Source: a virus | Direction: 5' to 3' (one strand) | IMG/VR virus record: IMGVR_UViG_3300020281_001713 | DNA length: 64,000 bases | Shown: one piece after another, positions 11,476 through 12,374 of the stretch | Layout: each line of letters begins with the position of its first letter | Numbering within the stretch: position 1 is the first letter of the stretch | Program-made: the position numbers and the translations under genes | Notes under the pieces: generated by a model | Told to the model about the DNA's origin: nothing | Seen by the model: only the letters and a program-made list of their open reading frames with translations | Databases searched by the model: none

Positions 11476-11787
11476 ATGGGACGAGTTTTTGTCGAGGAGG
11501 CTATAAATGCTACAGGTATTGATAGAACTAATTTAGTTGTTGTAGCAACATACCTAGTAAGAACTAAGCAAGCTACAAGTGCTATAGATGCGATACGTAG
11601 ACTAGAAAACGGAGAGTTTGACAAAGCAGAATTAGAAGAAGAAATGATTAGATTTTTTCAACATGAAAAACCTAAACCTGTTGAAGAAGAACCAATTATA
11701 GATGTTGACTCTTTTAATAATAAACAACAAAAACACGAAGCAGAAATAGAAGAAATTTTTTCAAAAGAGGTTGACACAGATAAATAG
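11476..11787 (+). CDS. Hypothetical acidic protein
   Basis: 103-aa ORF with AAGG SD. Confidence 0.65.
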   Translation: MGRVFVEEAINATGIDRTNLVVVATYLVRTKQATSAIDAIRRLENGEFDKAELEEEMIRFFQHEKPKPVEEEPIIDVDSFNNKQQKHEAEIEEIFSKEVDTDK

Positions 11788-11799
11788 CTGTGTTATAGT
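11771..11799 (+). promoter_or_regulatory. Promoter of the leader/tRNA operon
   Basis: TTGACA-N17-TATAGT with TG extension; nested late motif GATAAATA at 11779-11786. Confidence 0.85.
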
Positions 11800-11823
11800 A
11801 TATACATACTAAGGAATAGAGCA

Positions 11824-11889
11824 ATGATGAACACAATACAAATAATATCTTATATATGGTGCCCAACTTACGGGAGGGGTTTGTCTTGA
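11824..11889 (+). CDS. Attenuator leader peptide MMNTIQIISYIWCPTYGRGLS (21 aa)
   Basis: AAGGA SD at 11811-11815; 4 ATA codons plus TAT, TGG, TGC, CCA and TAC, which match the downstream tRNA anticodons. Confidence 0.8.
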   Translation: MMNTIQIISYIWCPTYGRGLS

Positions 11890-11924
11890 TGTGATTTATT
11901 GACATTAAGTTTGAAACAAGCCCC
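11876..11924 (+). promoter_or_regulatory. Antiterminator hairpin
   Basis: GGGGTTTGT (11876-84) pairs with ACAAGCCCC (11916-24); inner stem CTTGATGT (11885-92) pairs with ACATTAAG (11902-09). Confidence 0.75.
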
Positions 11925-11948
11925 AAGCGAAAGCAAGGGGCTTTTTTT
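11918..11948 (+). terminator. Intrinsic terminator (attenuator) abutting tRNA-Trp
   Basis: AAGCCCC-AA-GC-GAAA-GC-AA-GGGGCTT running into a T7 tract. Confidence 0.9.
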
Positions 11949-12022
11949 ATGGGTGTAGTGTAACGGTAGCACGACAGTCTCCAAAACTGTTAGTCGGGGT
12001 TCAAATCCCTGCACCTATGCCA
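11949..12022 (+). tRNA. tRNA-Trp(CCA)
   Basis: ATGGGTG/CACCTAT acceptor, ACAGT-CTCCAAA-ACTGT, GGTTCAAATCC, CCA end. Confidence 0.9.
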
Positions 12023-12027
12023 ACAAC

Positions 12028-12112
12028 GGGCGGCATGTTCACAAGGTGTGACATCGGACTGTAAATTCGACGCTGAAAAGCATGCCTGGTTCGATTCCAG
12101 GGTCGCCCACCA
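12028..12112 (+). tRNA. tRNA-Tyr(GTA)
   Basis: GGGCGGC/GTCGCCC, TCGGA-CTGTAAA-TTCGA, long variable arm, CCA end; A at position 8. Confidence 0.9.
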
Positions 12113-12117
12113 AGAAC

Positions 12118-12194
12118 CGGAGTATAGCACAGCTTGGTAGTGCGCCTGGTTTGGGACCAGGAGGTCGTAGGTTCGAATCCTACTACTCCGACCA
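12118..12194 (+). tRNA. tRNA-Pro(TGG)
   Basis: CGGAGTA/TACTCCG, CCTGG-TTTGGGA-CCAGG, CCA end. Confidence 0.95.
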
Positions 12195-12198
12195 TTTT

Positions 12199-12273
12199 GT
12201 GAGCGTGGGGGAATTGGTTACCCATCGGATTGCAACTCCGCTTATGCAGGTTCGAGTCCTGTCGCTCACTCCA
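12199..12273 (+). tRNA. tRNA-Cys(GCA)
   Basis: GTGAGCG/CGCTCAC, CGGA-TTGCAAC-TCCG, U73 discriminator, CCA end. Confidence 0.9.
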
Positions 12274-12280
12274 ACATTAA

Positions 12281-12374
12281 GGTCCTGTAGTTTAATGGTA
12301 AAACACCCGGCTTATACTCGGCATAGTCTCCAGATTAGAGAGCGATGCAGGTTCGAATCCTGCCAGGACTACCA
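12281..12374 (+). tRNA. tRNA-Ile(TAT) with an unusually long extra arm
   Basis: GGTCCTG/CAGGACT acceptor, CCGG-CTTATAC-TCGG, about 24-nt variable region, GCAGG-TTCGAAT-CCTGC, ACCA end. Confidence 0.8.

Follow-up and report, generated by a model that had tools for sequence, protein, structure and literature searches.

The window, the whole 64,000-nucleotide stretch of viral DNA analysed here (IMG/VR record IMGVR_UViG_3300020281_001713), carries a unit in which a promoter, a short leader ORF, and an intrinsic terminator precede five tRNA genes. The features are:

11771..11799, + strand: sigma70-type promoter TTGACA-17-TG-TATAGT (11/12 consensus match, with an extended -10 TG)
11810..11815, + strand: Shine-Dalgarno sequence TAAGGA, 8 nt before the ATG
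11824..11889, + strand: leader ORF of 21 codons; homologous leaders, in frame, have 15-24 codons
11836..11865, + strand: control zone, codons 5-14, in which 8/10 codons are read by the array (ATA four times, TAT, TGG, TGC, CCA)
11861..11880, + strand: weak 1:2 hairpin, a candidate pause or protector structure (-5.8 kcal/mol; median -6.5 in homologues)
11876..11924, + strand: predicted antiterminator (segments 2:3), 9+8 bp, -20.2 kcal/mol, sequestering the terminator 5' arm
11918..11948, + strand: intrinsic terminator (segments 3:4), stem 11918-11943, -14.7 kcal/mol
11949..12022, + strand: tRNA-Trp(CCA), the first gene of every homologous array
12028..12112, + strand: tRNA-Tyr(GTA), from a tRNA gene call
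12118..12194, + strand: tRNA-Pro(TGG), from a tRNA gene call and Rfam
12199..12273, + strand: tRNA-Cys(GCA), from a tRNA gene call and Rfam
12281..12374, + strand: tRNA-Ile(TAT), 94 nt with a long variable arm, reading ATA, from a tRNA gene call and Rfam
12395..12422, + strand: next sigma70 promoter, which bounds the gated unit downstream; many homologues likewise have a similar promoter after the last tRNA

Transcription is expected to start near 11806. All of the elements named in the preliminary description (promoter, Shine-Dalgarno sequence, 21-codon leader, terminator, and five tRNAs) lie where it had placed them, and the antiterminator of about 17 bp that it had drawn over the terminator 5' arm corresponds to the two-part helix listed above. 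The terminator ends in a tract of seven U residues (11942-11948) that abuts tRNA-Trp, and it shares the C-run at 11921-11924 with the antiterminator; homologous terminators range from -13 to -22 kcal/mol. The 11918-11943 hairpin, which is seen on folding, escaped a simple terminator scanner, most likely on account of its internal loop. Rfam confirms four of the five array tRNAs. The long, class-II-like variable arm of tRNA-Ile(TAT) is conserved in homologues L028, L036, L088, L111, L117, and L146, and this tRNA is 83% identical to a sequence of Lactobacillus phage LpeD.

The leader contains the consecutive codons TAT-ATA-TGG-TGC-CCA (11851-11865), which are read by the five array tRNAs, and all four of its Ile codons are ATA. 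Given the phage codon usage, the chance of five consecutive codons with one for each array tRNA is ~3.6e-7 per five-codon window and ~6e-6 per 20-codon ORF, and no such run occurs among 88,685 windows in the real ORFs of this phage. The preliminary description was right about this run, and its assignment of Watson-Crick cognates stands for ATA, TGG, TGC, and CCA; TAT is read through wobble, and the TAC codon that it had also counted (codon 16) falls past the masking point and outside of the control zone.

To model the switch, the nascent RNA was folded just before the terminator 3' arm emerges, with a simulated ribosome masking it to 12 nt past the A-site codon. With the A site at any of codons 6-14, the antiterminator is predicted to form with a probability of 1.0; this falls to 0.34 at codon 15 and to 0 at TAC16 and all later codons through the stop. 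The control zone thus ends at CCA14, where the run of five matched codons also ends. In this folding model the G-run at 11876-11880 is the part that is covered by a ribosome beyond codon 14. Once the full hairpin has been made, the terminator is favoured at equilibrium (64-82%) with the ribosome at codons 10-14, and the switch would therefore depend on co-transcriptional kinetics, as is probably usual for attenuators. An untranslated leader is predicted to read through, because the 1:2 hairpin is weak (-5.8 kcal/mol in the window), and folding gives this outcome in 71/78 of the distinct homologous cassettes described below. Across these same cassettes the antiterminator is predicted to be present with the ribosome at the Trp codon (W) in 77-78 of 78 when the footprint is set at +9 to +12 (60 at +14) and absent with the ribosome at the stop codon in 77/78, with a switch point between W-1 and W+3; a control with shuffled regions switches in 130/390. 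The earlier proposal that a stall frees the antiterminator and that a ribosome at the stop masks it is thus reproduced in silico. One lineage (L048, L058, L136, and L142) has a 15-codon leader with a TAG stop that overlaps the antiterminator G-run, and a ribosome at this stop still masks the antiterminator in silico.

Homologous loci were sought through neighbouring genes, and these searches returned mostly loci without tRNAs; only L018, found via the upstream gene, opened a path to the family. The cassette of L018 is the same in kind; its tRNAs are Trp and Gln, and its leader includes three CAA codons. A pattern built on the core common to the window and L018 (and so imposing the antiterminator core) retrieved 129 loci (set 1); with the window and L018 included, 121 cassettes end in a terminator, and tRNA-Trp leads the array wherever the sequence continues past it. 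A second, held-out pattern, limited to the 3' arm of the terminator and the opening bases of tRNA-Trp, retrieved 55 new loci (set 2), and an 18-24-codon leader with an in-frame TGG is present in 54/54 of those having upstream sequence (a few with a weaker Shine-Dalgarno sequence), as anticipated if homologous loci keep the leader ORF. Together the ~170 homologous loci represent 79 distinct cassettes with 29 tRNA sets (78-79 cassettes in pooled tests). Ten pattern matches that are not cassettes, loci cut by contig ends, L107, and L141 were left out of the statistics. Relative to otherwise identical cassettes, the L107 leader has TAT changed to TAG and the L149 tRNA-Trp has an extra anticodon-loop base, both probably assembly errors.

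The cassette is well conserved in its parts. Of 78 cassettes, 71 have a promoter no more than 95 nt from the start codon, 74 have AGGA or GGAG ahead of the start, and all 78 have a TGG in frame at codon 10-13 of an ORF with a Shine-Dalgarno-led start. Antiterminator segment 2 and the terminator 5' arm change jointly in L180 and L194 (GAGGGC / GCCCTC), and in L180 the terminator 3' arm changes to match, giving a three-way correspondence. The distance from W to the G-run varies in steps that are not multiples of three, the stop codon shifts (to TAG in the L048 lineage, or in a longer frame in L193), and in several lineages the leader C-terminus changes frame with the RNA kept; it is therefore the control codons and the RNA that are conserved, and not the peptide. 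Six loci (L026, L049, L056, L099, L104, and L116) have inserts of 74-95 nt between the terminator and tRNA-Trp; the three that were folded form long closed hairpins (-25 to -35 kcal/mol), with ends that pair with the terminator U-tract, and these inserts may represent a small RNA under the same gate as the tRNAs or a further layer of control. In arrays L141, L150, L113, L084, and L098 the Gln, Ser, and Cys tRNA genes appear interrupted or duplicated around inserted sequence, resembling insertion sites of mobile elements or homing genes.

Leader codons follow the composition of the arrays. Matched codons cluster between W-8 and W+4 in the homologues and are nearly absent elsewhere. Among 53 distinct complete cassettes of set 1, 86 of 87 non-Trp tRNAs have a cognate leader codon, compared with 66.6+/-2.9 after shuffling (0/10,000 shuffles reach the observed value), and for the variable tRNAs that remain when Cys and Pro are removed the match is 31/32 compared with 17.1. 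Set 2 behaves similarly, with 44/45 non-Trp tRNAs matched (33.1 shuffled) and 17/18 of the variable ones (8.6 shuffled); pooled, 129/132 array tRNAs are matched between W-9 and W+3. When the shuffling is confined to clusters of close relatives, p values are 0.001-0.005 at the tightest cut, and 0/5,000 shuffles reach the observed value at looser cuts. An internal control is provided by tRNAs that follow a 46-56-nt gap and have their own sigma70 promoter, of which only 3/9 are matched.

The correspondence extends to isoacceptors. With tRNAs having a CAT anticodon scored as AUA-reading Ile2 by their resemblance, the ratio of ATA to ATT/ATC leader codons in set 1 is 28:0 in cassettes with an AUA-reading tRNA and 12:20 in those without, and disjoint nearest-neighbour contrasts show more ATA in 12/13 and fewer in none. 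Comparable contrasts favour Pro by 11:2 and Cys by 12:1, and those for Ser, Tyr, and Gln are too few. Individual loci provide further examples, as in L171, where tRNA-Ile(GAT) is paired with an ATT codon; L180, where tRNA-Gly is paired with Gly codons; and L160, where tRNA-Tyr is paired with two Tyr codons. A tree-based independent-pairs test yields only four pairs (p 0.25) on a poorly resolved tree of non-leader columns. The co-evolution of leader and array, which the preliminary description had led us to expect, is well supported by these sequence contrasts, which are drawn from clusters of kin and from nearest neighbours rather than from a rigorous phylogenetic correction. The match is one-way: the array is nearly always contained within the leader, and codons for Cys, Pro, Gln, or Tyr often persist in the leaders of cassettes that do not have the tRNA (for Cys, in 26/75 rows), as would follow if tRNA genes vanish faster than leaders drift. 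TGG with tRNA-Trp is the only invariant pair, and 14/79 cassettes gate tRNA-Trp alone. The one-for-one match of codons and tRNAs thus holds in the window and does not extend to the family, where leader codons are in surplus and Trp is the sole constant input.

The other tRNAs of this phage (Thr, Arg-TCT/Leu, and Arg-ACG) are without a leader-terminator cassette, and a scan of the contig for promoter-short ORF-terminator cassettes found none besides the one led by tRNA-Trp. Viral contigs contain one chance match to the exact leader pattern, without a tRNA, and no match to a strict terminator-plus-tRNA pattern. GTDB genomes have 0 cassettes by the full pattern and 20 loose-pattern matches with no tRNA on site, and no bacterial chromosomal copy was found there. 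Cultured phages searched by blastn have no homologous cassette. A tRNA-Ser with the unusual anticodon ACT is present in the related phage of L018 (4887-4977) and in Vibrio phage 2.275.O (L252, 25538-25614).

The window is part of a 335-kb contig (C57) of 36% GC that resides within a 2.36-Mb bacterial bin. The T4-like gp23 capsid protein of C57 shares 68-73% identity with its counterparts in Sinorhizobium phage Phosso, Vibrio phage 2.275.O, and the PA5oct/Paride group, and the contig therefore derives from a jumbo myovirus that was binned with a bacterium; sequencing runs with parts of this stretch are mostly marine. No RNA polymerase beta, sigma70 region-2, or tubulin families were found on C57, and matches are on other contigs only; a divergent phage polymerase could escape such a family search, and the result is consistent with transcription by host sigma70 polymerase in the cytoplasm, as attenuation needs. 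RNA runs contribute low-depth contigs only, one spanning the terminator (X3, 11858-12005, depth 2.6) and one spanning the promoter (X1), and DNA carry-over is possible in both. The bacterial bin contains tilS, and co-binning is no proof of host.

The organization resembles that described by the ribosome-mediated attenuation model of amino-acid operons (E. coli trpL, and also hisL, pheL, thrL, and leuL; PMC1183508). Like trpL-type systems, the cassettes have a promoter, control codons within a short ORF, alternative helices for the antiterminator (2:3) and the terminator (3:4), and a control region that ends at the last codon where a stall frees segment 2; an invariant Trp codon is common to trpL and the phage cassettes. 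The trp/his/ilv-type layout put forward in the preliminary description therefore appears sound, with the predicted helices, the reading frame, and the codon/array co-variation in agreement. The cassettes differ from the trpL type in that they are carried by phages, their output is tRNA genes rather than enzymes, their control codons match the gated anticodons at the level of isoacceptors, they have a weak 1:2 hairpin, and read-through is their predicted default when the leader is untranslated. No Rfam amino-acid leader family (Trp, His, Phe, Thr, or Leu_leader) matches at its gathering threshold, and we see no sequence homology; the best matches, to Phe_leader and Thr_leader, score at most a sub-threshold 16.4 bits against a cut-off of 55. 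The amino-acid biosynthetic targets typical of those families are replaced by tRNAs in all homologues.

Other known systems share individual aspects of this arrangement. The ilvGMEDA (Ile/Leu/Val) and thr (Thr/Ile) attenuators act as OR gates in which a single leader takes input from more than one amino acid, and the pheST synthetase attenuator controls a component of translation. The phage cassettes differ from these in having up to five inputs that are re-spelled with tRNA gain and loss, and in having the tRNA itself as the product. T-box riboswitches likewise sense tRNA status and switch between terminator and antiterminator, but they do so without an ORF, by direct binding of tRNA to Stem I and a specifier loop; the leader is only ~140 nt, and T-box model RF00230 has no match at E<=10 on 11760-11955. 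Phage tRNAs have been proposed to offset degradation of host tRNAs or the action of nucleases, with Vibrio phage 2.275.O, mycobacteriophage cluster C, and PARIS-evading tRNAs as examples (PMC12482277, PMC12409363), and the passages covered do not mention leader-gated control of tRNAs. All of these phage-encoded tRNAs, like those here, could replace depleted host tRNAs. In the capsid relatives 2.275.O and PA5oct, however, the inspected tRNAs (the first array of PA5oct and 13 tRNA units in 2.275.O) follow promoters or genes, and no leader-terminator cassette precedes them. A literature search of mostly open-access papers returned no report of leader-peptide attenuation of tRNA genes.

We propose that the cassette is a functional ribosome-mediated transcription attenuator with tRNA genes as its output, to which we give a probability of roughly 85% from the sequence and the modelling together. 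The window has a promoter and a Shine-Dalgarno-led short ORF, cognate control codons, a terminator upstream of the regulated genes, and a mutually exclusive antiterminator that is free at a stall and masked at the stop in silico. Host sigma70 polymerase would start near 11806 and a ribosome would load on the leader, with translation coupled to a pausing polymerase. When the Trp, Tyr, Pro, Cys, and AUA-Ile codons are read quickly, the ribosome would pass codon 14 and cover the G-run at 11876-11880, the terminator would form, and transcription would stop at ~11948, immediately before tRNA-Trp. A ribosome lingering on any codon up to CCA14 would allow the antiterminator to pair with the terminator 5' arm before the 3' arm exists, and the five tRNAs would be transcribed. 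Since the control codons are decoded by the gated tRNAs themselves, the arrangement would constitute an OR-gated negative-feedback loop on decoding capacity, centred on Trp, and the phage probably makes the array tRNAs mainly when ribosomes read the leader codons slowly.

What the switch responds to is a more delicate matter. The most plausible signal is a loss of functional tRNA (through cleavage, decay, or loss of host tRNA genes) rather than amino-acid shortage, and both may act as triggers. A broader and joint claim, that this is an evolvable multi-input sensor of tRNA loss with a leader re-spelled at each tRNA gain or loss, supplying replacement tRNAs on demand in response to anticodon-nuclease defences or to infection-driven decay of host tRNAs, has in our estimate about even odds. 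We consider it possible, though distinctly less so, that the same attenuator reports amino-acid starvation and uncharged tRNA in nutrient-poor marine hosts rather than tRNA destruction. Classical attenuators sense charging (PMC1183508), and a stalled ribosome cannot distinguish an uncharged tRNA from a missing one. The relatives of this phage also include Paride-type phages, which would fit a starvation signal, as Paride-type phages infect dormant cells. Nonetheless, extra tRNA cures a loss of tRNA and gives no relief from a lack of amino acid, except via isoacceptor competition, and the leader tracks the isoacceptor (ATA versus ATT), which together favour the sensing of functional tRNA supply.

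The remaining explanations dispense with some or all of the codon readout. One is that the attenuator responds to Trp alone, the other matched codons being there incidentally or for structure (CCN for the 1:2 hairpin, TGC beside TGG), as could be suggested by the invariance of the Trp pair, the cassettes gating tRNA-Trp alone, and the frequency of Pro and Cys codons lacking their tRNA; but with Trp, Cys, and Pro all excluded, 47/50 array tRNAs are still matched, compared with 21 after shuffling and 36-43 after shuffling within clusters, and codons for Gly, Phe, Tyr, and Ser, like ATA, track the tRNAs that read them, making this explanation unlikely. We think it more improbable still that the antiterminator is triggered by a protein or RNA (in the manner of a T-box, TRAP or PyrR, or a phage antiterminator) or acts as a timer, with the ORF as a by-product. 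The leader does have a UGGU resembling the T-box bulge and a sub-threshold Rfam match to PyrR, but neither a T-box nor any other riboswitch is found at the gathering threshold, the TGG is in frame at codon 10-13 of a Shine-Dalgarno-led ORF in 78/78 cassettes, and codon co-variation reaches ~8 codons upstream of it. The least credible alternative is a gene for a small functional peptide followed by an ordinary terminator, with tRNAs made by leaky read-through and the codon match arising by chance; it is compatible with existing expression data, but it has to accommodate the low chance probability of the five-codon run, the codon/array co-variation, and C-termini that shift frame freely in the presence of a conserved antiterminator.

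Why phages carry tRNAs has been a matter of several proposals, including codon bias, decay of host tRNAs, and evasion of nucleases (PMC12482277). A switch that turns on phage tRNAs only at slow reading of their own codons would argue for on-demand compensation, and it makes such hypotheses testable with a 150-nt reporter. Attenuation, a textbook mechanism for amino-acid operons, would be extended to tRNA genes with a direct feedback loop closed, and the sensor of tRNA loss, if correct, would represent a form of autoregulation of tRNA genes through translational feedback that is not known to have been published. The 79 natural cassettes with their 29 tRNA sets would form a library of codon-specific sensors of decoding capacity, and they point to the tRNAs that are short during infection, with Trp first, followed by Cys, Pro, Ser, and AUA-Ile. 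On the tRNA-loss reading, the host tRNAs that are limiting or attacked could be read off from the leaders.

Several other aspects of the phage DNA are worth recording. Contig C77 (153 kb) of the same bin (G000) is a 99.9% identical reverse-complement duplicate of C57:171486-324735, C79 duplicates C57 at ~12-24 kb, and phage DNA makes up ~0.5 Mb of the bacterial bin. Within the window, a cluster of long ORFs at 16301-39524 (2932, 1127, 1180, and 1802 aa) probably encodes virion structural proteins, and the array has a QueD-like gene (9514-10017) and an endonuclease gene (13526-14596) nearby. tRNA-Arg(ACG) (10623-10699) lies in frame inside a 287-aa glycosyltransferase-like ORF (10545-11408) that matches phrog_1962 at residues 58-286. 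The tRNA occupies the linker that follows a 28-aa basic N-terminal module of this ORF, and in other phages (L003-L017) the same module is fused to a different domain.
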